From Candidatus Staskawiczbacteria bacterium (GTDB lineage: Bacteria; Patescibacteriota; Minisyncoccia; Minisyncoccales; Staskawiczbacteraceae), in the NCBI GenBank assembly GCA_026395215.1, contig JAPLZC010000010.1, positions 7,371 through 71,370 of the forward strand: 64,000 nt of DNA. Reading direction: 5' to 3'. The notes below the pieces were generated by a model. It was given only the letters and a program-made list of their open reading frames with translations, ran no database searches and was not told the DNA's origin. Positions 17,456 through 54,260 of this stretch are shown here, in pieces. A program made the position numbers and the translations under genes. Numbering within the stretch: the first letter of the stretch is position 1; every line of letters begins with the position of its first letter.

Positions 17456-17461
17456 TTGAAA

Positions 17462-17488
17462 AGGCCCACACTTACGACGTGTGAGCCT
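17462..17488. terminator. Hairpin between convergent genes; possible terminator.
   Basis: The stem aggcccacac / gtgtgagcct pairs at 9 of 10 positions. The U-tracts are weak. Confidence 0.45.
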
Positions 17489-17518
17489 CGTCCTTCCCCC
17501 ATTCGTGGGAGATGACCT

Positions 17519-17842
17519 CTAAAATTCTGGTTTCCTTTCCAGTTTGATCCTGGGCCACCCGATAACGTCTCGGACGTAGGGTGTGAACCCAAACATTAGG
17601 AAACTAACCAGTAGGATTCGTCCATGGCCTAGCAGGCCGGTCAGCCATGGGAGTAGAATTCCCAGGCTTTCTGTGCCTAAGCCAATGACGGCGAGGGCAA
17701 GGGTGCCCCCTGCAACGGCAGTTGTAAGACATCCAATGCCGAAGCCAATCCAACAGGCAATGCCAATGGCAACGTTTGCCAGCGCCTCTGCCACCTCGAC
17801 GGTGGTAATCAGCCAACACGGGAGTGTGATTGTCGTCTTCAT
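17519..17842 (-). CDS. Small hydrophobic membrane protein in a GC-rich island.
   Basis: 107 aa with three or more Gly/Ala/Ile-rich helices. The antisense ORF 17583..17921 is Pro/Arg-rich junk. Confidence 0.5.
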   Translation of the reverse strand: MKTTITLPCWLITTVEVAEALANVAIGIACWIGFGIGCLTTAVAGGTLALAVIGLGTESLGILLPWLTGLLGHGRILLVSFLMFGFTPYVRDVIGWPRIKLERKPEF

Positions 17843-17969
17843 GGAGTACCTTTCTTTGTTTTCCGCCAGTATTAGCGGTTTGAGCCAGAAACTCTTGAGC
17901 GTGTCGAAGAGCTTGTGCTAAAACCGCTGTTTTTAAGGAACTATTGTACTCATTAATTATAGCACCTTA

Positions 17970-19445
17970 TTAGACCTTTGTCAATAGTTTGGCTAGAATC
18001 TCACCCACCATCTTTGGGTTGGCTGTTCCCTTGGTTTTGGCCATTACTTGACCAGTTAAGTACTGCACAGCGTTTTGTTTACCGGCTTTATAGTCTTCAA
18101 TTGCTTTAGGGCTGTTTGAGATAACCTCACTTACAATTGTTTCAAGCCCAGAGCTATCAGACATTTGCCCCCAGTTATTGTCTTTTACAATATCTGACGG
18201 GTCAGTACCTTTATCAAACATTTCCAACAAAACCATCTTAGCAATTTTGCTTGAGATTTCATTTTTATATATCATTTTTACAAACTCAGCAAAATTTTCC
18301 GGAGTAATTTTGAACTCGGCCTCTGAAAACTCTGTCCCAACTAATAATCCCTGCACATCCGATATTAAGTAATTAGCCACCAATTTAGAGGCTTTTTTAT
18401 GTGCCTCACCTATTTCCTCCTCACTAGTCCATGCTTCAAACTCAGAAACGACTTTTTCGAAATATTCACTTAACTCTTTGTTAGTAACAAAAAACTCAAT
18501 TGAGGCTTCGTCCAAACCAAACTCTTTTTTAAATCTTTCTCTTTTTTGTTCTGGTAATTCTGGCATAGTATTTTTTATATTAATAATATATTCCTCCTCA
18601 AAATGCATTGGAGGTAGGTCTGGCTCAGGAAAATACCTGTAGTCATGTGCCTCTTCTTTTTCTCTTTGCGAAAACGTAATTTCTTTTTTGTCGTGCCATC
18701 CCCGTGTTTCTTGCACTACCTTTTCTCCCGCTTCCAAAAGTTCTTCCTGCCTTTTTATTTCAAAATCCACTGCTTTCTCTACAACTTTAAATGAGTTCAA
18801 ATTTTTAATCTCAACTTTTGTACCAAGCTTTTTTGTTTTACTTATAGAAATGTTTACCTCTACTCTCATCTGCCCCTTTTCCATATTAGCATCAGAAACT
18901 CCCAAATATTTAAAAATTCTCTGCAATTCTTCGGCAAACTCCTTAGCCTCTTTTCCCGAAGTAATATCCGGTTCAGTTACCAACTCCATCAAAGGCACTC
19001 CTGCCCTATTTAGGTTCACTAGAGAGTAATCTGCGCCCTCTGGGTGCATTAAACTCCCAGTGTCTTCTTCAAGGTGTATTCTTGTTATTCTAATTTTTCG
19101 GATTTCGGATTTCGGATTTCGGATTTCAAGCCAGCCACCGCTGGCGAGTGGTTGGTCGTACTGAGAAATCTGATATCCTTTTGGCAGATCCGGATAAAAG
19201 TAATTCTTCCTATCAAATTTAGAATCTGTAGCAATTTTACAATTTAAAGCCAGCCCGGTTTTAATAACCTTTTTTATTGCTTCTTCATTAGCCACAGGCA
19301 AAGCTCCCGGTTGCGCAGTACAAACAGGACAAATATTATAATTTGGCCTTTTCTCATCTGGGTCATTTTTACACCCGCAAAACATTTTAGAGTTAGTCTT
19401 TAACTCCGCATGTATTTCCAACCCAATTGTAACTTTGTATGCCAT
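17970..19445 (-). CDS. gatB: Asp/Glu-tRNA amidotransferase subunit B.
   Basis: Motifs IGLEIHAELKTNSKMFCGC and RIHLEEDTG, with a C-terminal GatB/YqeY domain. Confidence 0.95.
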   Translation of the reverse strand: MAYKVTIGLEIHAELKTNSKMFCGCKNDPDEKRPNYNICPVCTAQPGALPVANEEAIKKVIKTGLALNCKIATDSKFDRKNYFYPDLPKGYQISQYDQPLASGGWLEIRNPKSEIRKIRITRIHLEEDTGSLMHPEGADYSLVNLNRAGVPLMELVTEPDITSGKEAKEFAEELQRIFKYLGVSDANMEKGQMRVEVNISISKTKKLGTKVEIKNLNSFKVVEKAVDFEIKRQEELLEAGEKVVQETRGWHDKKEITFSQREKEEAHDYRYFPEPDLPPMHFEEEYIINIKNTMPELPEQKRERFKKEFGLDEASIEFFVTNKELSEYFEKVVSEFEAWTSEEEIGEAHKKASKLVANYLISDVQGLLVGTEFSEAEFKITPENFAEFVKMIYKNEISSKIAKMVLLEMFDKGTDPSDIVKDNNWGQMSDSSGLETIVSEVISNSPKAIEDYKAGKQNAVQYLTGQVMAKTKGTANPKMVGEILAKLLTKV

Positions 19446-19455
19446 ATAAACTATG

Positions 19456-19986
19456 TTAATTCTTTCTTTCTAATACTACAAATGAATAATCAAATGAATT
19501 TTTTTCGTCGGATTTGTGGTCTTCTCGGCTTACTTCATTCCACTCGGCTGGGTTAACTTCGGGGAAATAGGTGTCGCCTTCGGGGGTGGCGTGGACATAG
19601 GTTAAATATAATCTTTGGGCCATTGGCAAAAATTGTCTGTACACTGAAGCTCCACCGCAAACAAAAATCTCTGATTTTTGCCCTGAGCTTGTCGAAGGGT
19701 CATGCTCGATAATCTTCAGCGCCTCTTCTATGCTGTGAGCCACAACACAATTTTCTGGAGCTACATAATTTACGTCCATATTTAATATAACATGTTTTCT
19801 GCCTGGTAGGGGTTTGCCACCAATTGAATTAAAAGTATTCAACCCCATAACAACCGTTTTACCCAAGGTTGTTTCTTTAAAGTATTTGAAATCACCAGCC
19901 ATTTTATATGGTGGAAAATTCCAAGGTATAGTATTTTTGTTCCCAATTACTCTATTTTCTGCAACCGCGGCAATCATTGATATCAT
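19456..19986 (-). CDS. folA: Dihydrofolate reductase.
   Basis: Motifs MIAAVAENRVIGNKNTIPW and VCGGASVY. Confidence 0.85.
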   Translation of the reverse strand: MISMIAAVAENRVIGNKNTIPWNFPPYKMAGDFKYFKETTLGKTVVMGLNTFNSIGGKPLPGRKHVILNMDVNYVAPENCVVAHSIEEALKIIEHDPSTSSGQKSEIFVCGGASVYRQFLPMAQRLYLTYVHATPEGDTYFPEVNPAEWNEVSREDHKSDEKNSFDYSFVVLERKN

Positions 19987-19993
19987 AGTATTA

Positions 19994-24721: not shown

Positions 24722-24750
24722 ATAATAGCCGATATGTTTCCCATTGTCAA
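24722..24750 (-). promoter_or_regulatory. Sigma70-type promoter for secE-nusG-rplK.
   Basis: The minus strand reads TTGACA-atgggaaacatatcggc(17)-TATTAT. Confidence 0.7.
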
Positions 24751-24893
24751 GAATAAGAGCGAGGCAATAAACTTTTTGTCCCGCCACAGCGGGATCCCGT
24801 TTGCGGGAAACGCCCAGGTCGACTTGCCCTGAGCGAAGTCGAAGGGCAAAGCGAGTTCCTGCTTACCGAAAAAAGTTTGTTGCCGAGCGATTA

Positions 24894-25151
24894 TTAGAAA
24901 CTGATGCCGGAGGCCATTAGGGTTTTGGCCATTTGTTTTTGGATTATTTCTCGGGCTTCGTTTAGACACTCTTTTAAAAGTTTTTGTTGTTTTTCTGTAT
25001 CTAAAGTCGGATTTAACTTTACTCCAGTAACTTCAAAGTTCCCGTTCATCTCAACCAAAATCCCATCTCTCTCAACAATTGTCTTTTCTTTTTTAAAAGA
25101 ATCCTGCAATTTTCTCAACTCGTTTATTTTTTTTAATTGATCAAATACCAT
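24894..25151 (-). CDS. YbaB/EbfC-family nucleoid-associated protein.
   Basis: 85 aa with a pattern consistent with YbaB (VEMNGNFEVTGVKLNP ... LLKECLNEA). Confidence 0.6.
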   Translation of the reverse strand: MVFDQLKKINELRKLQDSFKKEKTIVERDGILVEMNGNFEVTGVKLNPTLDTEKQQKLLKECLNEAREIIQKQMAKTLMASGISF

Positions 25152-28396: not shown

Positions 28397-28551
28397 AAGT
28401 TTACGTAGCGTAGCGATATATATATTACTTAATTATACTCCTAACTATTGGGCAAATCAAGACCCAAACTGGGGATAATTTTGTATTAAAAGAGGAGCGT
28501 GCCATTGTGCACACGCTCCTATCAACCATCTCCTGCCTGCCGCAGGAGGGC

Positions 28552-28968
28552 CTACTGCTCCGAGTATCTGTATAATATCGGGAGACCGCTTCTTCGACCC
28601 TCCGCCACGATGAAAGCTGTGGTATGGTCGAACTCCTTCGACAGTCCGACAAGGGATGACTCCCCGTCGAACGCAAAGGAAGTTACTTTTTCCTTCCCGA
28701 CATATTTCCATGCCACAGTGGTCCTATACGGACCCTTGGTCTCATACCCGTGGGTATAGACCACGTTTACATACGTCCCAAACTTCGGGACGTCACCCGT
28801 CTGGTTGACGGGCTCCTGGCTTTCGACCACGCCGGGTATGTGACCCGGCATTCGCTTGTAGTCGTATACCCCATCATCGGACTCGTTGGAGCCCACCGAG
28901 GCACATCCGCCGGTCAAGATGACCAGCAGGACGACCAACGTAATCATAGACAGAACCGTGCGTTTCAT
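28552..28968 (-). CDS. Putative lipoprotein in a GC-rich island.
   Basis: MKRTVLSMITLVVLLVILTGGCAS forms a signal peptide plus lipobox. The start is re-set to the ATG at 28968. Confidence 0.6.
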   Translation of the reverse strand: MKRTVLSMITLVVLLVILTGGCASVGSNESDDGVYDYKRMPGHIPGVVESQEPVNQTGDVPKFGTYVNVVYTHGYETKGPYRTTVAWKYVGKEKVTSFAFDGESSLVGLSKEFDHTTAFIVAEGRRSGLPILYRYSEQ

Positions 28969-29041
28969 AAACCTCTCCTGTAACTGTGTTGCTGAGAGAA
29001 CCAACGCTGGCACCTTACCAGAATCAATCCTCTCTTTATTT

Positions 29042-29070
29042 ATTATAGCATATTATTAAAATCGTGTCAA
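29042..29070 (-). promoter_or_regulatory. Consensus sigma70 promoter for the lipoprotein gene.
   Basis: The minus strand reads TTGACA-cgattttaataatatgc(17)-TATAAT. Confidence 0.7.
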
Positions 29071-33027: not shown

Positions 33028-33056
33028 TTGACATACCAATATAATGTTGATATAAT
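33028..33056 (+). promoter_or_regulatory. Consensus sigma70 promoter for the DGR target gene.
   Basis: TTGACA (33028-33033), then a 17-nt spacer taccaatataatgttga, then TATAAT (33051-33056). Confidence 0.75.
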
Positions 33057-33249
33057 AAAAAACTAAATAGCACCTTGAAATATGGTTCAGAAACATGAGA
33101 TGAGCGTTTTGTTCCGTCCCTAAAATGGAACCCACGGAGTAAACCGCTCGTCTCATGGGAGACAGACGTATAATCGGAATCGTAAGTCCGAAACACAGGT
33201 CGCTCTGAGATGATATCAAAGGGCTAACAGTGAACGAAGGAGCAGAGTC

Positions 33250-34023
33250 ATGAAATGGACAGATATCGCAACCGGTAAAACCCACAGCGCCTTTCAGCAA
33301 TTCATGGTCGCCCTCGGTGACAAAGCCGAGGTTGCCGTGGAACGTATGAATGCCGAGCCCGTGTTTGCGGATCGCTTGGCGGACTACGCCTTGAACGGTG
33401 GCGTTGAACCGGCAACCAACCAGAAGCGTGCCCGTGACATCATGGGCAAGGGCTTCTTTGGCATTGAGGAGGCTATCAGCCACTTTGGTGTCAATCCGAC
33501 TCGGAGGCAACTTGCCGTTCTTTCGGCAATTCCGGCCACAGAGGCGGAGTTAGAGCGGTTCAGAAACACGCACGTGCTCAGGGCGGTTTTCCCGCTCTCG
33601 ACTATCGAGATTCGGAACAGGACAGCGAAGGTCAAAATGCCAGACGACCAACGGTTGTTTGCCAAACAGGACTGGTACGACAAAGAGCCTTTCGCAACCG
33701 AACAAGGTGAGACAAGCTGGCAGTTGGTCTGCAAGACCAAAGTCGCCAACTCAACCTCTCTAAACTGGACGCAACAACAGGCTCTAATCGGCAAGGATGA
33801 CGAAGTACCCACGCTTCAAGTGATGGTCTACACTATCATCAGCCATTTCCTGGTCACTGGTGAGCGTCTCTTCGAGAAGCTCTACGTTCGCACTTCCAGT
33901 GTTTACTCGGATGGCAGCCGTGTCCACCTCGGTCGCTTCGGCTCTGAGGGTCTCGATGTCAGCCGCAGCTGGGATGGCCATTGCACTGACGACTTGGGCG
34001 TTGCCTCCGCTCGGAAGTTCTGA
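33250..34023 (+). CDS. DGR variable (target) protein. The C-terminal VR probably lies in a C-type-lectin/FGE-like fold.
   Basis: RBS gaaggag lies 7 nt upstream of the ATG. The last 41 codons match TR except at TR adenines. The C-terminal ..W.D..C....LGVASARKF resembles CLec-type VR ends. Confidence 0.85.
   Translation: MKWTDIATGKTHSAFQQFMVALGDKAEVAVERMNAEPVFADRLADYALNGGVEPATNQKRARDIMGKGFFGIEEAISHFGVNPTRRQLAVLSAIPATEAELERFRNTHVLRAVFPLSTIEIRNRTAKVKMPDDQRLFAKQDWYDKEPFATEQGETSWQLVCKTKVANSTSLNWTQQQALIGKDDEVPTLQVMVYTIISHFLVTGERLFEKLYVRTSSVYSDGSRVHLGRFGSEGLDVSRSWDGHCTDDLGVASARKF
33898..34021 (+). repeat. DGR variable region (VR).
   Basis: Gap-free 124-nt alignment to TR (offset +515) with 17 mismatches, 16 of them where TR has A. 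Confidence 0.9.
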
Positions 34024-34067
34024 GCCTGAACCTTGAGGTTTTGAGGATTGAATCCTTTTGACCCCTT

Positions 34068-34110
34068 GAGCCTTCTACGAAATTTTTTTCGGGGAAGGCT
34101 CTTTTATTTT
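34068..34110 (+). terminator. Rho-independent terminator of the target gene.
   Basis: Sequence GAGCCTTCtacgaaatttttttcgggGAAGGCTCttttatttt. Confidence 0.75.
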
Positions 34111-34412
34111 CTTCCATTATCATATAATATATAACTGTCTGCTAATGCAGGTACGGTTACGGCTTTACCTCGCAGGCGTCTCATCTTTTTGAGATATCAC
34201 CAGAGTATCGTTGTTTACGCCTGCCTACCGGCAGGCAGGGATAACGGTAGCGTGTGAGAAAGATGGAGATAGAACTTCTTGCTTGCCCTTGGTGGAGGTG
34301 TCCTGAGTTTTATCGAAGGACTGCTCTCGAATAAAATACAGGGGAAAGAGGATATAAGCTTTTAACGGCAGTAAACCTCGATTTCCAGTGACTTAGATGA
34401 GGGCAAGCAAAT

Positions 34413-34536
34413 AGTGTTAACTCGGATGACAACCGTGTCAACCTCGGTAACTTCGACTCTGAGGGTCTCAATGTCAACAACAACTGGGATGACAATTGCA
34501 ATGACAACTTGGGCGTTGCCTCCGCTCGGAACTTCT
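34413..34536 (+). repeat. DGR template repeat (TR).
   Basis: Non-coding and rich in AAC (9) and AAT (3) codon-equivalents. The 25 nt at 34507-34531 are identical to VR (IMH-like). One non-A mismatch occurs at 34532. Confidence 0.9.
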
Positions 34537-34557
34537 ATTTCTCGTCTGAAATTAAAA

Positions 34558-34585
34558 CGCTCTCCAAATTAGGAGAGAGTTTTTC
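34558..34585. terminator. Hairpin/terminator between TR and the convergent avd.
   Basis: Sequence CTCTCCaaattaGGAGAGagttttt, ending 1 nt before the avd stop codon. Confidence 0.65.
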
Positions 34586-37531: not shown

Positions 37532-37569
37532 AAAAAAAATCGGCGAAAAAGCTTCGTGCTTTTCCGCCG
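37532..37569 (-). terminator. Rho-independent terminator after purH.
   Basis: The minus strand reads CGGCGGAAAAGCacgaaGCTTTTTCGCCGatttttttt. Confidence 0.75.
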
Positions 37570-37610
37570 TATAACGACAATCTTTTTTTTTGGGTCAGAG
37601 ATGCCCTTGC

Positions 37611-39233
37611 TTAATGTACAGCGAACCCGCGGGCTCCGCAGCCGTCGTCCAGCATATGGAGATTTGCACCTGCGTCCTTGCAGTGCTGAATTGTTGCAGG
37701 ATCTCCTCCGCCCGGCGCCTTGCTTCCGCTTGTGCTGAATATTGTTTTTACGCCGCCATCTGTCAGCACTTTCGGTCCGTCAGGATACGGGAAGAAGCTG
37801 TCGCTCCATGCAACCGAATCTTCCAGCTCACCTCCATTGCCTGCCTTTTTGGCCCTGAGCAACGCAACCATTGCAGCTCCAACGCGGTCCTGCTGGCCGA
37901 CGCCATTGCCAAGCAACTTGCGATTTTTCACCACAGTAATCGTATTGCTGTTCCCAGTGCGCGCAATTGCGCCGGCAAGCAGCAAATCCAGCTCCTTGTC
38001 TCTGTCGCGTGCTCCCGCCACAAGCGTGCTGTCGTCTAACACGGGCACATAGTTGTCCCGAGGCTGTGTGAGAAAACCTCCGCGCACAGGCCTGCATTGC
38101 AGAGAAGAATCCATCTTGAGATCTCTGCTTGCGAGATGGGGATTGACCACCATCCTGCATTTCCCTTTCACGCGCTCCAGAAATTCACCGACGCCTTCCT
38201 CGATTTCAGGGGCAACCACGCCGTCGAACTTTTGCGTTTTGCCCTCCATGCCGGCGTGAACCATAAGTCCGGCTAAATCCTTGGTGAGCTTAAAGTTGCA
38301 CATTACAACTCCGCCCATGGCAGCAGTGGTATCGCCTGTAACTGCATTTAGGACCGCTTGTGCCGGATTATCCATGTCGATGCCGGCGCCACAGCAATTG
38401 CCGTGTTTAACAACAAGGCACACACAGGGAATAATTCCCCTCTTGCCAATGTAGTTTACCACGTGCGTCAGTGTTGTGATTTCGCGATCGTAGTCGGTCA
38501 CGTTGATGTAGCTTGGAGTGCTCCCCTCAACAACATGGAAATTCTCCAGTGCGAGAGGATCTTTGCTGCCTGTGCTATAAAGTCGCGCCGGCTTCTGTTT
38601 GTTTTCGCCGTAGGCAAGCTCTTGCACAAGCTCGCCCATCAAACCTTCGAACTGCCCATTGCCATGATATCTCGCAGAAGCGAGCACGTACTTGGCAACT
38701 TCGAATTCGGCGCGGGCCCGCAGTCTCTGGCGAGTCTCCTTCGAAACAGCGCCGGTTTCTTCAAGCTCACGCAAAATCACCTCGCGATCTTGAAGCGTAC
38801 AGGCGACAATCCGCAGGCCTTTTGCCGCCGAACGGACCATGCACGGCCCGCCAATGTCAGTGCCTTCTGCCACGCTCTCAGGAGTGGCGCCAGCTTCAGA
38901 GATCGTTTTCTCCAACGGATAGAAGTCACAGATCACCATACTGATGACCGGAATACCGAGCTTCTTTAGCTCTTTCATGTCTTCCTGTTTGTCGACATTT
39001 GCCAGTAAGCCGGCATGAACTTCCCGCGACAGTGTGACAACGCGGTGGCCGAGAATTGATCCCCCGCCAACCAGCTTAGCCACATCTCTAACAGGCACGC
39101 CTGCTTCCTTGAGTTTTTTTGCGGTACCGCCCGAGCTGATAATTCTCCAGCCCAGCGCAACCAATCGACGGGCACAATCTTCTATGCCCGTTTTATTGGA
39201 GACCGACAGCAACGCCCATGGCTTTGCTTTCAT
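37611..39233 (-). CDS. purH: Bifunctional AICAR transformylase / IMP cyclohydrolase.
   Basis: MGS-like N-terminus (ALLSVSNKTGIEDCARRLVALGWRIISSGGTAKKL) plus an AICARFT domain. About 60% G+C on a 60-nt hand count. Confidence 0.85.
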   Translation of the reverse strand: MKAKPWALLSVSNKTGIEDCARRLVALGWRIISSGGTAKKLKEAGVPVRDVAKLVGGGSILGHRVVTLSREVHAGLLANVDKQEDMKELKKLGIPVISMVICDFYPLEKTISEAGATPESVAEGTDIGGPCMVRSAAKGLRIVACTLQDREVILRELEETGAVSKETRQRLRARAEFEVAKYVLASARYHGNGQFEGLMGELVQELAYGENKQKPARLYSTGSKDPLALENFHVVEGSTPSYINVTDYDREITTLTHVVNYIGKRGIIPCVCLVVKHGNCCGAGIDMDNPAQAVLNAVTGDTTAAMGGVVMCNFKLTKDLAGLMVHAGMEGKTQKFDGVVAPEIEEGVGEFLERVKGKCRMVVNPHLASRDLKMDSSLQCRPVRGGFLTQPRDNYVPVLDDSTLVAGARDRDKELDLLLAGAIARTGNSNTITVVKNRKLLGNGVGQQDRVGAAMVALLRAKKAGNGGELEDSVAWSDSFFPYPDGPKVLTDGGVKTIFSTSGSKAPGGGDPATIQHCKDAGANLHMLDDGCGARGFAVH

Positions 39234-39386
39234 AATAACTATTCTCCTTGTCTTAACTTGGTTTTCAACGAGCCCGATCAGACAGAGTACTTTTCTCTGC
39301 CCATCAACAATAAGACTACATTAAATTTTGAAAAAATCAAGCAACGCACAAAAAAAACCACGGTATGCAAACCATGGATTTAAAAT

Positions 39387-40406
39387 TTATAAGCTGGCCA
39401 AAAGGCCCTGAACAAGATTGCTGTCTCCTGTGTTATCAATTGACTGGTCAATGGCAAGACATTGTTGATAAAGATTTCTGGCTTTAATTTTGTCTCCCTT
39501 AACATGGGCAATTTCCGCGGCGCGGAAAATGGTAAGACTTTTTAGAACACAAAGCCCCACATCGTCCGGTGCATCGGAAAGCGCATCATCAACAAACTTC
39601 AGCGATTCTGCGGCACACTGTTCGGCTTCATCAAACCTGTTCATCATCCGCAGCAACAGAGCTTTTTCGCCGAGTGCTGTTGCTATATTCTTTTTATTTT
39701 GTGCAGACAGTACAGTCCTCTTGCTGAGTTTTCCAAAAGCAGAAACATATATATTTCGGCCAATCCTTTTTGCGGTTACCATTGACCCGCACATGGTACA
39801 TTGGCCTTCAACTCCTTCTGTTGATCCCGGGATTTTAATTGAGAATCCGCAAGCAGGGCATCGGCTGTTGTAATATCCGTCGTAGTAATTTTCCTGGTCG
39901 TCAGTTGAAATAACCGATTTTGCCACATTCTCAACTGTCCCTTTTTTCTGGGACTCAATAGCCTTGTCAAAATATTCCAAAGCTTTGATGGCTCGTGGAA
40001 AATTTCGCAGGACCTCGCCTTCTTCTTGAAGAATTTGTCCAAACTTCAGCTTTCCGGTGCCTGCCCAGAACTGCGTAGCAGCCCTGGCCCGATTGTAATT
40101 GGCTACTCCGCTTTTTATATGGAGCAACCTGACCAAAATCATCACAAGCAACGGCGGACCAAGAAGATAAACCAGCGCCATGGCCATATTCTTTTCAGTT
40201 ATAACTTCGAGTTTCAGCGAACCTGCCCGTTGCATGTATCCGCCGACCATGACAGTTCCTATCCCAACCAGCACCGCAAAAAACGGAAGCACTTTTGGCG
40301 GACGCTGTATGGCCAGCTCGAAAAATCCATACACTGCCCAATGATAGGCAATGACGCAATTTGTCGAAACGAGTACAAGGTAAAAAATCAGTTCGTTGTT
40401 ATTCAT
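39387..40406 (-). CDS. Hypothetical membrane protein with a zinc ribbon and a TPR-like C-terminus.
   Basis: Three N-terminal helices, the motif CPACG..x17..CTMCG, and a helical-repeat tail. Confidence 0.45.
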   Translation of the reverse strand: MNNNELIFYLVLVSTNCVIAYHWAVYGFFELAIQRPPKVLPFFAVLVGIGTVMVGGYMQRAGSLKLEVITEKNMAMALVYLLGPPLLVMILVRLLHIKSGVANYNRARAATQFWAGTGKLKFGQILQEEGEVLRNFPRAIKALEYFDKAIESQKKGTVENVAKSVISTDDQENYYDGYYNSRCPACGFSIKIPGSTEGVEGQCTMCGSMVTAKRIGRNIYVSAFGKLSKRTVLSAQNKKNIATALGEKALLLRMMNRFDEAEQCAAESLKFVDDALSDAPDDVGLCVLKSLTIFRAAEIAHVKGDKIKARNLYQQCLAIDQSIDNTGDSNLVQGLLASL

Positions 40407-40408
40407 AG

Positions 40409-40870
40409 CTACTCGCGTATCCTTTCTATAAAACTAAACGCCGCACCAAAGGGAATTGCCAAAAAAAGCAACATCACAACATAAAAGAAGGTTATTGCTA
40501 TTCTTCCCGCGGTCATTTCCGAAAGAAAATGACCATGCTGGATGAATGCCACGATTGGGCAAACAAGCGCGCAGGTGCACGATATAGATTTACTCATATG
40601 TCCCCGCGGCATTGTAATTGAAGTGGAAAGACCACCCAATATCCCAATTATCACTCCGATTAATCCGCCCGTTTTGGCGCTAATCGAAAGAAGCATCTGA
40701 TGCAATTCTTTCGGCATTAAAATCTCATCTCCGACCACCGGGCCGGCAAACAGACAGCTTGTTGGCATATAGTAATACACCATGCCAAACAGGAAGCCGA
40801 TTATGGCTCCTGCCAGAACACTGAGAAACTTATTCTCTTGCATTTGACCCTTTCTGTTGTCAAAGGACAA
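40409..40870 (-). CDS. Hypothetical 4-TM membrane protein.
   Basis: 153 aa with Gly-rich helices. The stop lies 2 nt from the next start. Confidence 0.45.
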   Translation of the reverse strand: MSFDNRKGQMQENKFLSVLAGAIIGFLFGMVYYYMPTSCLFAGPVVGDEILMPKELHQMLLSISAKTGGLIGVIIGILGGLSTSITMPRGHMSKSISCTCALVCPIVAFIQHGHFLSEMTAGRIAITFFYVVMLLFLAIPFGAAFSFIERIRE

Positions 40871-40998
40871 CTGTTGTTAAGGCTATTATTAATTATAATT
40901 ATGATTTTGTCAACCTTATCTTTCAGTAAACCCGAAAATTTTAAGATAAAAAAATCCCCTTGGCGTTGCCAAGGGGTACGAATCTTCAGTCGAAAACA

Positions 40999-42009
40999 CT
41001 ATGAAATGAGATTTTTCCAATCTTCCTCAGGATCATATGCTTCTGCAATCTTGACCTCTTCCTGCCAGCAGATACTCCTGAAACTTGCTGCCACGGCGGA
41101 AGGCGGAGTGTCAACAACATTGACGCCAAGGACCTCGTAAAGGGCAGGCATATTAATCCGGGGAACGAATTGCGCAACCACAGGCACAACCTCCCTTTGC
41201 AAAGGAGAACCCATAAAAACAATGTTGATGTTCTGGATTCCCAGCGTTTCCACGTAATGCTTTACAATGCGCCAGGCGAAATGGGCAAAAATCTTAATAT
41301 CCCTTTCGCTGAACTTATGGATTTCGTACCTGGCGAAATGCAAATCTACATGATATTGGCCTCTTGGGCTCCAAGGGGCAATCAGTTTGACTTCCCCGTT
41401 GTTCTCATCCTGGGGGTAAATGATCAATTGCTCTTGCGCCAGTTCCCTGTAATACAGCCCCAGTCTCCTGTCGCAAATTGTTTCGCGGGAGACATGGCTG
41501 TCCCATCCGTATTGAGCATGGATGTGAGGAATAGTCTGGCCGGCCAATTTTCCGAAATTAAACCCCAAAACCATCCTTGGAATATCATACGATGTTATTG
41601 GGTTTTTGGCGAAACGACGGGCGCATTCAATGACACCCTTCAAAAGCAAATAAAAATCAATCTTCCGCAGTTCGCCAAGCTTGGTTATGTGTATCTTGCC
41701 CTTCCGTATAGCAACGTCGTCGTGCCACACAAACAGCACTTTCTGGTCGTAAGGCAGAAATGGAGCCGCATTAGGAAACGAAGCAACCTTCCCGCCGGCC
41801 ACGAAATCAAGTTTCGGTTTGCCTGCAAGTTTTTCGGGATTGCAGAGGCGACAGCCATCTACGCCCAGCTCGTCTTTGTTGGGTTCTTGATGCGGTTTTC
41901 CAAGCCGCTGCGCTCTTTTGATGGAAAGCGCCGTTGGGACCGTCGAAAGCAAATCTGTATGGATTTCAACTCCATTTGTCAGTTCGCTCTTGTTTAGAAG
42001 ACTATTCAT
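40999..42009 (-). CDS. GalT-like (HIT-superfamily) nucleotidyltransferase/phosphorylase.
   Basis: CRLCNPE zinc-knuckle-like motif and GQTIPHIHAQ (HxHxQ). Confidence 0.5.
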   Translation of the reverse strand: MNSLLNKSELTNGVEIHTDLLSTVPTALSIKRAQRLGKPHQEPNKDELGVDGCRLCNPEKLAGKPKLDFVAGGKVASFPNAAPFLPYDQKVLFVWHDDVAIRKGKIHITKLGELRKIDFYLLLKGVIECARRFAKNPITSYDIPRMVLGFNFGKLAGQTIPHIHAQYGWDSHVSRETICDRRLGLYYRELAQEQLIIYPQDENNGEVKLIAPWSPRGQYHVDLHFARYEIHKFSERDIKIFAHFAWRIVKHYVETLGIQNINIVFMGSPLQREVVPVVAQFVPRINMPALYEVLGVNVVDTPPSAVAASFRSICWQEEVKIAEAYDPEEDWKNLIS

Positions 42010-42199
42010 AAGAACCTCCTACCTTTCAAAGAACAACTCATTTACCGTTAGGAAGGGCCAGCGTAATGCTTGCCCGGTTATTCCCAAGGGTTTAATTTCA
42101 CACTATACCTTGTAGCATCTTTGTCAAGCAAAAACTGCCTCAGGTGCTAAAGCAGGAATTTTCATACTTACTTACGAATTATTTGTATGACACCTTACT

Positions 42200-46680: not shown

Positions 46681-46685
46681 ATTTG

Positions 46686-46756
46686 TTGGGTCGCTCCGAA
46701 TTGCACGGAGGCCTGCAGCTTATGAGACTGCCGAGGTACTACTCCTCCACGACCCA
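46686..46756 (-). tRNA. Second CAU-anticodon tRNA-like gene with atypical D- and T-loops.
   Basis: Acceptor TGGGTCG/CGACCCA, D arm GAGG-AGTAGTA-CCTC, anticodon arm GCAGT-CTCATAA-GCTGC, T arm CTCCG-TGCAATT-CGGAG. Confidence 0.55.
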
Positions 46757-46822
46757 ATGCCTTTACATAGCAATCTATGTAATACTAATTACTTTACCAC
46801 AAAAAAAGGGTATAATCAAGCT

Positions 46823-48229: not shown

Positions 48230-48286
48230 AAAGAGGGCTCGTTTGCACGAGCCCATTGGGTTCAGATTAGAAAAAGTCCTGTTGGA

Positions 48287-48751
48287 CTAAACAGCGCGCG
48301 CGTGGCGCCTAACGTCGACGAATTTCGCTGTGACAGTCACGGCACCAACTCCGTGGCGTATCACCATATTGTACATGCTGCCTTTCTGCTCTTTGGCACG
48401 ATTCAGCGCCTCAGCGGCAGTCAGGGGCCCTTGTGTAGGCTGATCCTTGGCCGATGCCTGTCCAGGGCAAAAGTGCCGAGAATCTGACCTGAGAAAAACA
48501 TTCAGATCCATCGTTCGGAAATGATCCCGCCACACACGGCGATCAACGCCATGGACATAGCGCCTTGCGCGTTTGTCGGTGACAGGAATCTTCTCAGGAT
48601 CCCGCCCGTGGCCGAAGGGTCGGGTGAGCTTGAGGTCGGTAAAGACCTGAACGAACACGTCGTGAGGCAACTGTCTGATGACATCCTTGGGCAACTCTCT
48701 GAACGCCGCCCTTTGCGCCCTCAAAGCTCTCCGGCGATCAGCACGGGTCAT
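48287..48751 (-). CDS. Hypothetical Arg-rich protein in a GC-rich island.
   Basis: 154 aa, family unknown. A hand count gives 55% G+C over 48301-48400. Confidence 0.45.
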   Translation of the reverse strand: MTRADRRRALRAQRAAFRELPKDVIRQLPHDVFVQVFTDLKLTRPFGHGRDPEKIPVTDKRARRYVHGVDRRVWRDHFRTMDLNVFLRSDSRHFCPGQASAKDQPTQGPLTAAEALNRAKEQKGSMYNMVIRHGVGAVTVTAKFVDVRRHARAV

Positions 48752-48813
48752 ATCCTTTGTTGAAGGCGGGGAAGCGCCCCTTTTGCCTTAATCATCTCAA
48801 TCAATTCTTCCAT
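48748..48813 (-). CDS. Possible 21-aa upstream micro-ORF (MEELIEMIKAKGALPRLQQRI).
   Basis: RBS aaaggag lies 9 nt upstream. Its stop overlaps the next ATG as ATGA. Confidence 0.3.
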   Translation of the reverse strand: MEELIEMIKAKGALPRLQQRI

Positions 48814-48880
48814 CTCAGCTACTCCTTTGTTGCTGTAATTTGCTTATCTAATCATTTCAAAGAACCATTTTATATTATAT

Positions 48881-48909
48881 AATATACACCTATTCTTGTC
48901 TATTGTCAA
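48881..48909 (-). promoter_or_regulatory. Sigma70-type promoter for the island operon.
   Basis: The minus strand reads TTGACA-atagacaagaataggtg(17)-TATATT. Confidence 0.65.
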
Positions 48910-48919: not shown

Positions 48920-50719
48920 TTACGCACGAAATACTTCTAAGAAGGCTTTTGTGGGCACATTTACTGTACCTTTGGCCTTCATTAACTTTTTACCTTTTTT
49001 CTGTTTGTCTCTTAGCTTGTTCTTTCTGGTTATATCTCCCCCATACAAATACCCTGCAACATCTTTCATGTAGGCCTTAATTGTTTCTCTTGCAATAACC
49101 TTTCCACCAATAACCGCCTGTAAAGCAACTGTAAATTGTTCGGGTGGCAAAACGTCTTTCAATTTTTCAACCATTTTCTTTCCCTCAAAATATGCTTCAT
49201 CTTCAGAAACAATTCTTGAAAATGCTTCCTCTTTTTTTCCTGCTACCCAAATTTCCATTTTAACCAATTTACCCGGCCTGTATCCTAAAAGGTTATAACT
49301 CATTGACGCATATCCCTGGCTGGCAGTTTTTATTTTGTCGTAAAGATTTGCAATAATTCCACGCAATGGAGTCTCAAAAATTATAATTACTCTTTCCGGG
49401 CTAAGATAAGTTGTTTCTATATAATTACCTTTTAAAGTCTTTAAAAGATCCATTAACTTTCCTATTTGATTTGCCGGAGCAATAACTTCTAAAGAAACCC
49501 ATGGCTCTTCTGTATTTTTTATTTTAGATTGATCTGGCCAGTCAGCTGCCGAATAAATAATAATTTCTTTTCCTTTTTGGTCAAAAACTTTATAGACAAC
49601 CGATGGCGTAGAAATAACCAAATTCAAACCAAACTCTCTTGCCAGTCTTTCAGAAATAATTTCTATGTGCAAAGTTCCCAAAAATCCACAGTTAAATCCC
49701 CTACCCAAGGCTTCTTTCATTTCTTGTTCAAAAACAAGCGCAGGATCTGATAGTTTTAATTTTGAAAGCGCCACTTTTAATAAATCAAAATCTTCCGGAT
49801 TTTCAGGATATAAACTGGCAAAAACCATTGGTTTTGGTTTTTGATACCCCGGTAATGCCTCAACACTGCCTCTTGTATTTATATTTTGTAATTTAATAAT
49901 TGTGTCTCCGGCAGTAACCTTTCCCGGTTCTTTAATTCCGGTTGCAATATATCCAATATCCCCCGCTTTAATTTTTGGTTGAGCTGAAAATGTTGGATTT
50001 AAATATCCAAGCTCTTTTACTTCGGCCAACGCGCTAGTTGCCATTAACTCAATTTTTTCTCCATTAGAAATTTCTCCGTCAACAACGCGTACAAACGCAA
50101 TAACTCCTTTAAATGAATCATATTCAGAATCAAAAATAAGTGCCCTAAAATCATTTATAGTGCTTTCTTTTGGAGGCGGTACTTGTTCAATGACTGCTTT
50201 CAAAACCAAATCAACGTTTGTGCCGTCTTTTGCAGAAATTTTTATTATGTCTTCGGGAAAGACCTGCAAAAGATTTGCCAACTCTTCAACTGTTTCATCT
50301 ACTCTTGCTATTGGGCTGTCTATTTTATTTATAACAGGAATAATTTTTAAGTTTTGCTTTTTGGCCAATTCCAGGTTAGCCAATGTTTGTGCTTGAATTC
50401 CCTGCGTGGCATCAACCAATAAAATTGCTCCTTCCACCGCCTCCATGGATCTTGAAACCTCGTAAGAAAAATCTACGTGGCCGGGAGTATCAACCAAGTT
50501 CAAAATATATTCTTTGCCGCCAAAACTATAATTCATTCTAATGGCTTTGAGTTTTATAGTAATCCCCTTTTCCCTTTCCAAATCCATAGAATCTAAAAAC
50601 TGAGGCATCATTTTTTTGGGATCAATTGTCCCCGTCAACTCCAAAAGCCTATCGGCCAGCGTAGACTTTCCATGGTCAATATGAGCAATAATACTAAAGT
50701 TTCTTATATTTTCTTGCAT
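48920..50719 (-). CDS. lepA: Translation elongation factor 4.
   Basis: Motif NFSIIAHIDHGKSTLADRLL; 599 aa with a typical LepA C-terminus. Confidence 0.95.
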   Translation of the reverse strand: MQENIRNFSIIAHIDHGKSTLADRLLELTGTIDPKKMMPQFLDSMDLEREKGITIKLKAIRMNYSFGGKEYILNLVDTPGHVDFSYEVSRSMEAVEGAILLVDATQGIQAQTLANLELAKKQNLKIIPVINKIDSPIARVDETVEELANLLQVFPEDIIKISAKDGTNVDLVLKAVIEQVPPPKESTINDFRALIFDSEYDSFKGVIAFVRVVDGEISNGEKIELMATSALAEVKELGYLNPTFSAQPKIKAGDIGYIATGIKEPGKVTAGDTIIKLQNINTRGSVEALPGYQKPKPMVFASLYPENPEDFDLLKVALSKLKLSDPALVFEQEMKEALGRGFNCGFLGTLHIEIISERLAREFGLNLVISTPSVVYKVFDQKGKEIIIYSAADWPDQSKIKNTEEPWVSLEVIAPANQIGKLMDLLKTLKGNYIETTYLSPERVIIIFETPLRGIIANLYDKIKTASQGYASMSYNLLGYRPGKLVKMEIWVAGKKEEAFSRIVSEDEAYFEGKKMVEKLKDVLPPEQFTVALQAVIGGKVIARETIKAYMKDVAGYLYGGDITRKNKLRDKQKKGKKLMKAKGTVNVPTKAFLEVFRA

Positions 50720-50720
50720 A

Positions 50721-52367: not shown

Positions 52368-52426
52368 TGAATATTTAATCTTAACAAAAAAATCGTCCTT
52401 CAACAAGTTCAGGACGATTTCTTAGT

Positions 52427-52787
52427 TGTCTTAGCAAGACTGTAAGCCGAATTCTGTATTATGTGATTATCTATCTGCCCATTCGATTACTCTCAGGGTC
52501 GAGCGAACTACTTTTAACCTTTTTCGATGATGAAACAACGAAAATAGGCTTTGTTCTTGCACCCAATAAGGATTTAGCCGTTTCATTCTTGCATTTCTGC
52601 AAAACTTATCCTTGCGGATACCTCTGCCTTTCGGCTTTGGCGTTACTGTTCGCACCTCTGTCTTACGACTGATGGCTGTTAGCCACTATACTTTTAGAGC
52701 CGCTTTCGCGACAATTGGTGTTCGGACTTTCCTCCCCGTCACAATGCCGAAGCTTTGGTCGGGGCAATCACTCATCTTGCTAAGACA
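52427..52787 (-). ncRNA. rnpB: RNase P RNA (bacterial type).
   Basis: The minus strand contains GGGGAGGAAAGTCCGAACACC (P4 5' strand) and ACAGAATTCGGCTTACAG. The P1 stem TGTCTTAGCAAG / CTTGCTAAGACA closes the ends. Confidence 0.9.
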
Positions 52788-52792
52788 ATTTA

Positions 52793-52820
52793 ATACTACC
52801 ATTATATAATCTATTGTCAA
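52793..52820 (-). promoter_or_regulatory. Promoter of rnpB.
   Basis: The minus strand reads TTGACA-16 nt-TAGTAT, ending about 6 nt before the predicted 5' end. Confidence 0.6.
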
Positions 52821-52825
52821 GACAA

Positions 52826-52859
52826 ATAAAAACCCAGCCAATTTCCAATTGACTGGGGG
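52826..52859 (-). terminator. Terminator after the small peptide gene.
   Basis: The minus strand reads CCCAGTCAATTggaAATTGGCTGGGttttta. Confidence 0.75.
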
Positions 52860-52913
52860 TTACATTGTTAGACCTTACGGTCCTTAATAGTTAGAGTGAC
52901 AACCCACAGGGGG

Positions 52914-53075
52914 TTAATCATCACCGCCGTTGCCGTCGCCGTCACCGTCACCACTGGATGCACTGCAACCTTCGGAACTGCTGGTTCCGTCAGTGCGGGC
53001 GTTCTTCATTGAACGCTGGTTATTCCAGTGGGCGTAGCCCGCCTTGATGCGGGCAAGTTTAGCATTGGTTTTCAC
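52914..53075 (-). CDS. 53-aa peptide MKTNAKLARIKAGYAHWNNQRSMKNARTDGTSSSEGCSASSGDGDGDGNGGDD (candidate rSAM substrate).
   Basis: Strong RBS GAAAGGAGG, then 5 nt, then GTG at 53075. It lies immediately downstream of the rSAM gene and has its own terminator. Hand counts give about 60% G+C. Confidence 0.6.
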   Translation of the reverse strand: MKTNAKLARIKAGYAHWNNQRSMKNARTDGTSSSEGCSASSGDGDGDGNGGDD

Positions 53076-53113
53076 TTTTACCTCCTTTCTTCCCGTTGAG
53101 CAATGGAAATCCA

Positions 53114-54196
53114 TTACTTAGAGAATCTCCAACACTGAGGATCTGGTGCGTAAAAATTCCCGCCAGAAGCTCCAAAAGCTACAGCAGGACATCCGCGACA
53201 ATAACACATGAGAGGACACCTCGAACAAATTTCGTGCCTTTTGATATCACGATAGAAGTCGAGTTCCTTGGAAGTGAAGACTTCCATTACGCTCTGCTCG
53301 GGCATTTTGCCTATTTTACTATTGAATCTTCTACAAGCAAAGACAGTGCCGTCAGCCAATACAGCCAAGTCTCTTGCGCCAATATGGCAACCCGAGATAA
53401 TTTGGCCTTCAGGATTTGATTCCAGACTGAACTTGCCCTGCTCATACAAAAGAAGCTTCCACAAATGATCCTTCAAAGTAAAGTTTGTCCTTGAACCCTT
53501 TGCTTTCAGTTCAGCAACAACTCCTTGAACCTCTATTAAAAAACTCCTATATTCATGGGGAGTGAATGCCGCCTCTTCCCGAGAAATCCTAGTATCAATC
53601 ACAGGATTTGTAGACAAGCGGGCAAAGGCAAAGGTTTTAACACCCAAATTACTTACCAGCTTCATCACATCAAATAAGTCATTGTGGTTTTTCTTGCTGA
53701 GAGTAAACATAACTACCGCTCTCATTTTATATTCAACAAGAAGTTTGATTGCCTTAACCGTGGCGGAAAAACTTCCCTGTTTGCGCAGGTGATCGTGCAT
53801 TTTCTCCATTCCGTCAAGGCTTACCTGGTAATTGACTACTCCCAGTTCCTTCATGCGAGAAATATTCCCAGCAGAAAGATGAAAAGGATTTCCTAAAATA
53901 TTCAAGCTGATTCCCTGTAGCGACGCATACTGCAGTATCTCAAAAAAATCGGGCCGCAGTAAAGGATCACCACCGGTGAAATTAATCCTAGGACGCGCTT
54001 CCGCAGCCTCACAAAATTCAAGAAATGAATCAATTATGGACTTACAGTCCGCGAGTGAGAGCTCTTTTTCAAGCTCACGCTTATAGACCTGCGGATCATT
54101 GACCATATAACAGTGTGCACATGACTGGTCGCAAAGACCTGTGATATGCCACTGGATAACAAAAACCGGCCGATTAGGATCGTACTTCTTACTCAT
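53114..54196 (-). CDS. Radical SAM enzyme with a C-terminal SPASM-type Cys cluster (peptide-maturase-like).
   Basis: The CDQSCAHC (CxxxCxxC) motif lies near the N-terminus. The C-terminus reads CSRCPLMCYCRGCPAVA...DPQCW. Confidence 0.8.
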   Translation of the reverse strand: MSKKYDPNRPVFVIQWHITGLCDQSCAHCYMVNDPQVYKRELEKELSLADCKSIIDSFLEFCEAAEARPRINFTGGDPLLRPDFFEILQYASLQGISLNILGNPFHLSAGNISRMKELGVVNYQVSLDGMEKMHDHLRKQGSFSATVKAIKLLVEYKMRAVVMFTLSKKNHNDLFDVMKLVSNLGVKTFAFARLSTNPVIDTRISREEAAFTPHEYRSFLIEVQGVVAELKAKGSRTNFTLKDHLWKLLLYEQGKFSLESNPEGQIISGCHIGARDLAVLADGTVFACRRFNSKIGKMPEQSVMEVFTSKELDFYRDIKRHEICSRCPLMCYCRGCPAVAFGASGGNFYAPDPQCWRFSK

Positions 54197-54232
54197 GTAG
54201 CACCAACTTTCTTTTAAAAGAGCTTACTATTT

Positions 54233-54260
54233 ATACTAATGAAATTGGCAACATTGTCAA
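54233..54260 (-). promoter_or_regulatory. Promoter of the rSAM-peptide operon.
   Basis: The minus strand reads TTGACA-16 nt-TAGTAT(AAAT). Confidence 0.55.

Follow-up and report, generated by a model that had tools for sequence, protein, structure and literature searches.

An atypical GC content is commonly taken as a sign that a gene was transferred horizontally not long ago. Replacement-type flexible genomic islands, such as O-antigen and capsule loci, are persistently atypical in GC content. GC-rich structural RNA genes reportedly stand out in AT-rich genomes, as noted by Klein, Misulovin and Eddy in 2002; selection for local RNA secondary structure in bacterial coding regions is said to have been described by Katz and Burge in 2003, and GC-biased gene conversion in bacteria reportedly by Lassalle et al. 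in 2015. Here, we describe GC-rich islands in a stretch of 64,000 nucleotides (the window; positions 7,371 to 71,370 of contig JAPLZC010000010.1, assembly GCA_026395215.1) from a Candidatus Staskawiczbacteria bacterium. The islands are eight accessory transcription units, each made of a promoter, one or more open reading frames (ORFs) and a terminator, plus an ordinary GC-rich RNase P RNA. In this case, the atypical signature persists in vertically inherited, positionally conserved genes past synonymous saturation, alongside an excess of predicted mRNA folding. Horizontal gene transfer (HGT) and compositionally atypical genomic islands were already described in Patescibacteria (PMC12455944), and a preliminary description of the window proposed that its islands were acquired repeatedly from a higher-GC donor and captured behind host-type promoters. 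Loci from relatives are designated by an L and a number.

Persistence of the GC-rich units

The GC content averages 38.5% over the whole window. A 100-nt sliding count, one of the checks proposed in the preliminary description, delimits discrete GC-rich segments at 17450-18086 (50% GC), 28444-29026 (53%), 32822-34550 (48.5%, with a core of 55%), 37537-39252 (54%), 39477-42003 (46-48%), 48206-48835 (54%) and 52576-53449 (47%). All nine earlier hand counts were reproduced exactly, both in islands (55% at 17601-17700, 61% at 28801-28900, 60% at 33301-33400, 60% at 38041-38100, 55% at 48301-48400 and 60.8% at 52921-53040) and in flanks (38% at 48101-48200, 39% at 49001-49100 and 30% at 35041-35100). 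Islands make up ~15% of the window, have 45-57% GC against ~36% in the backbone, and their GC steps match transcription-unit borders to within tens of bases. The pattern is real, and it is more regular than the preliminary description had it. GC content at third codon positions (GC3) is bimodal among genes, 0.23-0.39 in the backbone and 0.45-0.68 in the islands, with a radical S-adenosylmethionine (rSAM) gene between the two classes (GC3 0.43, 43% GC). The island composition is foreign-looking at all codon positions and in amino-acid usage, GARP amino acids being higher and FYMINK amino acids lower. The islands do encode accessory products and do lie among housekeeping genes, as had been claimed; the flanking products are DnaE, ThrRS, GlmS, MiaB, MiaA, GatB, DHFR, ThyA, Tmk, GyrB, PheS, a DEAD-box helicase, ABC-F, a P-type ATPase, LepA, MurJ, MetK, a RecJ-like protein and PGK.

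For purH (AICAR transformylase/IMP cyclohydrolase; ORF 37611-39233, 54.5% GC, GC3 0.58), we took 80 loci with their flanks from named genomes. The gene is above its flanks in GC content almost everywhere, by a median of 4 points. Since some AT-rich genomes of the candidate phyla radiation (CPR) carry a host-like purH (gene/flank GC of 34/33 in L043 and 37/34 in L056), the protein family does not itself require a high GC content. The window's gene belongs to a deep CPR clade in which every member is a GC island and proteins are only 46-62% identical, with gene/flank GC of 55/36 in the window, 55/45 in L010, 56/43 in L011, 46/34 in L009, 55/38 in L012, 51/36 in L072 and 49/33 in L018. All 7 of the clade members in the tree exceed their flanks by about 11-19 GC points, and two close matches fetched later do so by ~15 points (54/39 in L092 and 49/34 in L093). 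The closest homologues of the window's purH therefore sit in other AT-rich CPR genomes, also as GC islands and with similar GC content, which contradicts a recent import of this gene.

All Staskawiczbacteria examined have purH. In L003, L007 and L072, it lies in conserved synteny among AT-rich neighbors, with a GC3 of 0.49-0.58 against 0.21-0.44 in the neighbors, at ~60% protein identity. Between L003 and L072, the purH proteins are 59% identical (GC3 0.58 and 0.54), and 13 further shared orthologues flanking the gene are 41-90% identical, with a GC3 of 0.24-0.44. Identity at four-fold degenerate sites of purH pairs is 0.32-0.36, where 0.27 is expected at full saturation, and GC content at such sites (GC4) is 0.46-0.66 in purH versus 0.26-0.41 in its neighbors. 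The window lineage, L003, L072 and L092 are all at a GC4 of 0.59-0.66 with these sites near saturation. As purH stays GC-rich in conserved synteny despite near-saturated four-fold sites, the contrast appears to be maintained and not fading.

A second case of persistence is island 1, found between gatB and miaA. In L097, whose backbone proteins are 75-90% identical to those of the window, gatB is followed by an island 1 homologue and then by miaA, which is on the opposite strand. At 47% identity, the homologue has 50% GC, with a GC3 of 0.52 versus 0.25-0.37 in neighboring genes; the promoter is kept with the island, again overlapping the gatB stop codon. In L095, the island 1 gene is 48% identical, has 53% GC and lies beside a miaA 3′ end that is ~86% DNA-identical to the window. 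All indels among these orthologues are in frame, and the ORF stays open. The evolution of island 1 is several times faster than that of the backbone, and its GC content is nevertheless 50-54% in three lineages. A recent import of island 1 is contradicted by the orthologous gatB/miaA position in L097 and L095 and by the 50-53% GC that remains at 47-48% identity. The neighboring miaA was also found to vary: the window gene (16502-17455) and that of L097 (4697-5587) are only 47-50% identical, and miaA is AT-rich (GC3 0.30). Given this low identity among backbone proteins at 75-90%, and ~86% at the miaA 3′ end in L095, the gatB/miaA junction looks hypervariable or replaced.

Among other units, the pair of rSAM and peptide genes of island 6 is kept upstream of murJ in L098 (MurJ 86%, LepA 93% identical), where the peptide gene has a GC3 of 0.67, and the two-gene unit of island 4b is conserved in L096. 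L090 (LepA 87%, MurJ 74%) has a flat GC profile with a maximum of 0.43, lacks the metK-rSAM-peptide block and shows no GC-rich equivalent of island 5 in the 875 bp downstream of lepA before the contig ends. Since island 5 and the rSAM-peptide unit are missing from L090, gene flux is real to some extent. This much of the repeated-capture proposal stands; recent capture from a donor fits lineage-specific units at most, and it fails for purH and island 1. Persistence is demonstrated for these two and, in part, for island 6.

Protein searches returned no candidate donor for any island, and best matches gave no donor-like homologue, at odds with the proposed acquisition from a higher-GC source. The island 5 protein is an orphan: a search of 5.8 billion proteins gave no relative of it. 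With the other small island proteins, HMMER run exhaustively over 1.84 billion representatives returned two relatives for island 1, one for the island 6 peptide and ~26 for the 153-aa protein of island 4b; the island 2 lipoprotein matched itself and one marginal sequence and is likewise an orphan. The 336-aa protein of island 4a has no family match, with none in PDB sequences or NCBIfam. A phage origin was rejected, as scans of viral collections with this protein and with the target of the diversity-generating retroelement (DGR) of island 3 gave no relatives. By contrast with these scarce matches, purH has thousands of relatives, the best being 56% identical among 5.8 billion proteins and the named ones being Patescibacteria. 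The only GC-rich context found for a relative of purH is L094 (61%; 56% identical), on a contig of uniformly 55% GC. This contig (ENA k141_3220041, 13.1 kb), which may come from an archaeon or a mobile element, further has purC, genes for a phosphoribosyltransferase and a HerA-like ATPase, an ORF with an IS1-like zinc ribbon and numerous small ORFs that lack annotation.

Predicted transcript folding and competing explanations

All folding evidence consists of computed minimum free energies. Whole island transcripts have z = -4.7, -3.2 and -7.5 relative to dinucleotide shuffles, the last value being that of island 2. In 200-nt sliding windows, also compared with dinucleotide shuffles, island ORFs average -1.22 and the 223 backbone ORF windows -0.14 (p = 9e-8). 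The difference remains when synonymous codons are permuted over the whole gene, with protein and codon usage fixed (-3.17 in islands versus -0.45 in the backbone), and when they are permuted within 150-nt blocks that also fix local composition (-2.69 versus -0.84, p = 5e-4). In the block test, purH, the tetratricopeptide repeat (TPR) gene and island 2 each reach -4.2, and the rSAM gene and island 1 each reach -3.0. The same test separates purH orthologues of the island type (-2.87, n = 13) from host-like AT-rich ones (-0.75, n = 10; p = 7e-4) and from those of GC-rich genomes (-0.63, n = 12; p = 2e-3). Since GC-rich purH in GC-rich genomes lacks the excess, it is not a by-product of GC content. 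The excess is found again in island 1 orthologues (-3.5 and -2.9) and in the DGR target of L092 (-3.1); the predicted excess is specific to island-type genes. It is larger on the sense than on the antisense strand in 17 of 20 genes (mean -3.5 versus -2.3, p = 8e-5), as expected for an effect at the RNA level. In the island 1 transcript, 28 of 103 predicted pairs are doubly changed among three sequences; the alignment is partly doubtful and we do not use this count as evidence.

We hypothesize, with a probability of roughly 0.4, that the islands are accessory units of long residence in which selection on transcript structure keeps the GC content high. They are eight self-contained units placed between housekeeping operons, each with a sigma-70 consensus promoter, a 5′ untranslated region (UTR), one or two ORFs and an intrinsic terminator. 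The units probably entered by lateral transfer at different times, and several have been resident for long; their GC-richness would be an equilibrium state held against the AT bias of the genome and not the fading trace of a donor. The holding force would most likely be selection for strongly folded, presumably long-lived or nuclease-resistant transcripts, in which strong folding would need G-C pairs at synonymous sites; island mRNAs would then act like structural RNAs, which are also GC-rich standouts in AT-rich genomes. That the folding excess is the cause of GC-richness and not its consequence, and that it brings a benefit, is what we infer. It is more doubtful whether there is a whole class of hard-folded messages, i.e., accessory genes of AT-rich CPR bacteria in which selection for structured mRNA lifts the GC content of the entire gene by 20 points and holds it there. 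The benefit of such an mRNA might be survival of an AU-directed RNA decay or toxin system, or of long dormant or host-attached phases. Our literature searches returned no description of persistent, GC-rich, strongly folded genes. If the persistence and the folding excess hold genome-wide, composition-based callers of islands and HGT would systematically misdate such genes in CPR genomes, and GC content at gene scale could be a selected, transcript-level trait. The GC-rich set, with a DGR target, a lipoprotein, small membrane proteins, purH and a cassette for a ribosomally synthesized and post-translationally modified peptide (RiPP), would mark special, separately regulated episymbiont biology.

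Several observations weigh against this hypothesis. The folding excess is missing from the 336-aa gene (z = -0.8), from the purH of L010 (-0.7), from the L096 orthologue of the 153-aa gene (-0.4) and from short fragments, and some backbone genes also fold well (DEAD helicase, -3.0; gatB, -2.4). Codons ending in C and in G are both raised and amino-acid composition is shifted, which resembles a general GC pressure and could just as well come from biased gene conversion. Tight folding might compensate for GC-richness instead of being its reason. Islands 2 and 5 have no orthologues, and the evidence of persistence comes from purH, island 1 and, in part, island 6. Polarised counts of strong-to-weak against weak-to-strong changes in purH are balanced or nearly so in the window (15:16), L003 (18:14), L092 (13:19) and L072 (13:14) and show net GC loss in L009 (28:5), L093 (23:7) and L007 (23:11), but they are low-powered at such saturation, and the argument for maintenance rests on the residual four-fold identity. 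We also considered tRNA-specific translational selection and rejected it, as codons ending in C and those ending in G increase in parallel and the genes for ribosomal proteins show no high GC content.

Alternatively, the islands could have been acquired repeatedly and rather recently from a single donor of higher GC content or from several, landing behind host-type promoters or arriving along with them, and have not had time to ameliorate. This would suit their foreign-looking GC3 and amino-acid usage, their orphan or accessory products, the lack of island 5 and the metK-rSAM-peptide block in the syntenic L090, the purH relative in the uniformly 55% GC contig of L094 and the HGT and genomic islands documented in Patescibacteria (PMC12455944). 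We nevertheless find it unlikely: no island has a donor-like homologue, island 1 and purH are GC-rich at conserved positions in relatives with saturated synonymous sites, the island 1 promoter is conserved along with its island, and integrases, transposases, border repeats and tRNA-adjacent insertions are lacking in the window. An unmodified import would be expected to look like the GC-rich orthologues of GC-rich genomes, and these have no folding excess. Moving the transfers back in time, to one or a few ancient events from a very GC-rich donor (GC3 above 0.9) with slow amelioration and no maintaining force, makes for an explanation that we regard as decidedly unlikely. Actinomycetota purH does reach a GC3 of 0.90-0.95, GC4 does range from 0.42 to 0.66 across the purH clade, and the L009, L093 and L007 genes combine net GC loss with lower GC4. 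On the other hand, under a two-state model, in which the approach to equilibrium composition and the loss of ancestral signal run at one rate, a residual pairwise four-fold signal of ~11% implies that about one third of the ancestral GC excess is left per lineage. Pure decay would therefore need an ancestral GC4 of ~1 or more even at the recent L003/L072 split, and decay to the backbone value would take impossible ancestral values at deeper nodes. The fast-evolving island 1, at 50-54% GC in its three lineages, is difficult to reconcile with slow amelioration, which does not predict a folding excess either. As for a chimeric metagenome assembly or a contaminated bin, in which GC-rich fragments were joined to an AT-rich contig, the compositional steps themselves and nothing else would speak for it, and we exclude it for all practical purposes: 12.5 kb and 2.6 kb of sequence across islands 5 and 6 recur in two independent assemblies, each from a single run, and are identical to the window except for one 19-nt indel elsewhere, and orthologous islands exist in unrelated data sets (L095, L097, L098 and other Staskawiczbacteria metagenome-assembled genomes). 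Moreover, the junction between gatB and island 1 is a functional composite, since the promoter overlaps the gatB stop codon.

GC-biased gene conversion is a force of another kind: the islands would be recombination-prone, flexible loci exchanged mostly among Patescibacteria, where repeated, biased repair of heteroduplex DNA raises GC content regardless of function. Effects on C- and G-ending codons as well as on amino-acid usage are what it would produce, most HGT detected in Patescibacteria is within the phylum, and the loci show hypervariability or patchiness, with 47% identity in island 1 and with islands 5 and 6 occurring in some relatives and not in others. It is an improbable account all the same, given that the GC steps coincide with transcription-unit borders, that the adjacent and equally hypervariable miaA (47% identical) is AT-rich, that the syntenic neighbors of purH are not elevated in GC content, and that neither the folding excess over synonymous permutations nor the sense/antisense asymmetry is predicted by it. 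We also asked whether islands 2 and 5, and possibly 1, might be structured non-coding RNA genes with incidental long ORFs. Strong promoters and terminators, orphan ORFs, the z values of -7.5, -4.7 and -3.2 and the same layout of promoter and GC-rich transcript in the RNase P RNA gene would be in line with this. Coding sequence is nonetheless indicated by the typical periodicity of GC1, GC2 and GC3 (GC content at the first, second and third codon positions), by the signal peptide and Shine-Dalgarno sequence of island 2, by the Shine-Dalgarno sequence and coupled upstream ORF of island 5 and by island 1 orthologues that differ by in-frame indels only and keep their ORF open. Rfam, both at gathering thresholds and at E <= 1, gives only RNase P RNA and tRNAs, with nothing in islands 1-5, and RNA genes of this kind are very improbable here.

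Anatomy of the units and their surroundings

The motif TTGACA-N16-18-TAnnnT occurs at 11 sites in the window against 2.44 +/- 1.63 expected, a number reached in 0 of 100 shuffles. Of these sites, seven stand in front of GC-rich units and two in front of backbone operons (DEAD helicase and secE-nusG); the remaining two are within genes. All four promoters claimed previously (29042-29070, 33028-33056, 48881-48909 and 54233-54260) are present, and further copies of the motif precede island 1 (17956-17984), island 4 (42100-42127) and the RNase P RNA (52793-52820). Among the window proteins, there is no integrase or transposase in or beside any island. No tRNA-adjacent insertion was found, the tRNA genes at 45.9-46.8 kb adjoining no island, and the island borders have short chance-level repeats only, with no repeat shared between them. 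An integron gene cassette array was considered and rejected: it would have an integron integrase, attC recombination sites and promoterless cassettes, and here no integrase and no shared border repeat were found and every unit has its own promoter.

Island 1 (17456..17984, reverse strand) starts with a perfect promoter, TTGACA-N17-TATAAT at 17956-17984, whose -35 box is within the last codons of gatB; the promoter overlaps the gatB stop codon. A 110-nt leader precedes ORF 17519-17842, which encodes a small membrane protein of 107 aa (54% GC), and the unit ends in a hairpin and U-run at ~17461-17490. Island 2 (28493..29070, reverse strand) has a perfect promoter at 29042-29070, a terminator at 28493-28520 and an ORF at 28552-28968 for a 138-aa lipoprotein with the lipobox LTGGC (~54% GC, GC3 0.68); its true ATG is at 28968, with a canonical lipoprotein signal peptide and a Shine-Dalgarno sequence. 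In island 5 (48235..48909, reverse strand; promoter 48881-48909, terminator 48235-48254), the main ORF, 48287-48751, has a Shine-Dalgarno sequence and encodes an Arg-rich protein of 154 aa (57% GC). An upstream ORF of 21 codons (48748-48813) is translationally coupled to it, its stop overlapping the main start in ATGA.

The island drawn previously at 37.53-42.12 kb is GC-rich as stated, but it consists of three units in tandem, which have a promoter and a terminator each, and not of one. All are on the reverse strand. Unit 4a (40956..42127; promoter 42100-42127, terminator 40956-40976) has ORF 40999-42009 for the 336-aa protein (48% GC). Unit 4b (39358..40913; promoter 40885-40913, terminator 39358-39377) encodes the 153-aa membrane protein (40409-40870) and a 339-aa protein with transmembrane and TPR segments (39387-40406), both at ~45% GC. 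Unit 4c (37541..39268), which is purH, has a weak promoter-like site at 39241-39268 and a terminator at 37541-37569. In L010/L006 (7666-17781), from another CPR genome, purH lies in a purine cluster with guaA, guaB, purA, purM and purC/E at 46-56% GC, next to ribosomal-protein and trmD genes at 37-39% GC.

Island 6 (52833..54260, reverse strand) has its promoter at 54233-54260 and its terminator at 52833-52857. It encodes a radical-SAM/SPASM maturase (53114-54196, 43% GC; matches to PF04055 and PF13186) and a 66-aa peptide (52914-53114, 53% GC), the start of the peptide gene overlapping the maturase stop. The maturase is nearest to the ACGX type, with 334 bits to TIGR04340, under the cut-off of 400 of this model, and an ACGX repeat is not evident in the 66-aa peptide. 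The only PADLOC matches are viperin-like models, to the rSAM enzyme. The peptide gene is GC-rich, as the preliminary description had it for 52.91-53.08 kb; the surrounding patch at 52.6-53.4 kb is partly due to the RNase P RNA, an ordinary GC-rich structural RNA with an Rfam match (52427..52820 on the reverse strand, RNA at 52427-52783) and a promoter of its own at 52793-52820. RNase P RNA and promoter (52418-52821) are inverted relative to murJ in comparison with three relatives (L089, L090 and L098). L001, an independent assembly of the same genome, has the orientation of the window. The two ends of the gene carry a perfect inverted repeat of 14 nt (52426-52439 / 52775-52788), which is the P1 stem.

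Island 3 holds a DGR. Its first part (3a, 33028..34023, forward strand) has a perfect promoter at 33028-33056, a 190-nt 5′ UTR and the target gene, 33250-34023, which encodes 257 aa (55% GC, GC3 0.66) and contains the variable region (VR) at 33898-34021, ending 2 nt ahead of the target stop codon. Its second part (3b, 34024..34572, forward strand) comprises a spacer and the template repeat (TR) at 34413-34536. TR and VR form a 124-nt repeat with 86% identity, in which 16 of 17 mismatches are at TR adenines (A-to-N). The genes for bAvd (34586-34936, reverse strand; PF22296, 3e-16) and reverse transcriptase (34941-35990, forward strand; PF00078, 2e-26) are part of the DGR and lie outside the GC island. 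With a backbone-like GC content of 33-35%, they narrow the earlier DGR-target island to the target gene and TR region. A scan of the whole window for TR-like sequence, ignoring TR adenines, found only TR and the single VR, and because the window has no remote VR, the other islands are not accounted for by the DGR. We also rejected mutagenesis of adenines by the DGR outside its target as the source of GC-richness, as there are no remote targets and sense-strand base counts in the islands show both A and T reduced, with no A-specific depletion. A second complete DGR, with a target of 50-57% GC and a reverse transcriptase of ~40% GC, lies immediately upstream of the GC-rich purH in L092, from a second CPR genome. 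There (1-4753), a GC-rich target, TR, Avd and a reverse transcriptase 48% identical to that of the window follow an arrangement that echoes the neighborhood of DGR, ABC-F and purH in the window.

Other observations concern the surroundings. The first 3 kb of the left end (1-4565) have 44-48% GC and no complete long ORF, and the 500-aa ORF 3063-4565 encodes a repeat-rich Thr/Ala/Gly protein with YRYSISANTW-type repeats (GC2 0.54). Here, the amino-acid composition accounts for the raised GC content, and there is probably a large gene that extends beyond the edge of the window. At 24760-24900, between a ybaB-like gene and the secE-nusG promoter (24722-24750), there is a small GC-rich hairpin patch (z = -4.0), which does not have the size of a gene island. 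At 46685-46756, ARAGORN predicts one more tRNA, the third and the second for Met, which Rfam does not report at the gathering threshold. This call overlaps the 5′ extension of the mechanically listed ORF 46592-48229, a beta-CASP gene that is called in L001 as a 468-aa product, i.e., with a start near 46823. The 19-nt indel consists of 19 extra bases in L001 at window 46088-46093, the sole difference over 12.4 kb, and falls in a short, AT-rich ORF (46072-46284) whose annotation is that of a GIY-YIG fragment; another such fragment is encoded at 46405-46680, across a tRNA-Met (46321-46393) from it. Three paralogues follow one another in tandem at 57805-62960 (556, 585 and 564 aa). A Pfam scan of the first gave no match, and the same triplication occurs in L090. 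A RhuM/Fic-domain protein with backbone-like GC content is encoded at the right end (63040-63948).

Comparison with described systems

As in the genomic islands described in Patescibacteria (PMC12455944), compositionally deviant and partly patchy accessory genes are found here between the core genes of a streamlined CPR genome. The units of the window differ in comprising only one or two genes over ~0.5-1.7 kb and in lacking mobility genes, border repeats and detectable donors. Classical islands are expected to ameliorate, whereas purH and island 1 are positionally conserved and keep their composition beyond synonymous saturation. Of the features by which such islands are recognized, a deviant composition was found, and mobility signatures, a matching donor and amelioration were not, except for decay in three purH lineages. 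With O-antigen and capsule-type islands, our islands share the same position in related genomes, high divergence and a GC content that does not converge on that of the host, but they are richer in GC than the host, so that the sign is reversed, work at the scale of single genes and have mutually unrelated functions.

One of the islands contains a known kind of system, and another may do so. Island 3 is canonical for DGRs of CPR bacteria, having a target with a C-terminal VR, a TR, bAvd, a reverse transcriptase and adenine-specific differences; here, only the target gene and TR region are GC-rich, Avd and reverse transcriptase being host-like, and L092 shows the same split. Island 6 may be a radical-SAM/SPASM RiPP cassette of the ACGX type: it has a maturase and an adjacent 66-aa ORF, but the TIGR04340 score is below cut-off and no ACGX repeat is evident.

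GC-biased gene conversion likewise raises GC3 in recombining genes with no codon-specific preference; the size of the shift, the sharp borders at unit ends, the AT-rich hypervariable miaA and the folding excess are not predicted by it. Selection for local structure in coding regions, of the Katz and Burge type, has in common with our data that native mRNAs outfold codon-preserving permutations, more so on the sense strand. In the window, the effect is found mostly in a subset of genes that is set apart by composition, is coupled to a GC3 shift of 20-30 points and is absent where the GC content of an orthologue matches that of its genome. Finally, in contrast to structural RNA genes, the islands are protein-coding, as seen in codon periodicity, the lipobox, in-frame indels and purH, and belong to no Rfam family. 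They are nevertheless similar to such genes in being discrete GC-rich transcripts with strong promoters on an AT-rich background, of which the RNase P RNA is a real example in the window, and it is plausible that structure drives the GC content. If messages are indeed hard-folded as hypothesized, mRNAs would appear as GC islands in the same way as rRNA, tRNA and RNase P RNA.

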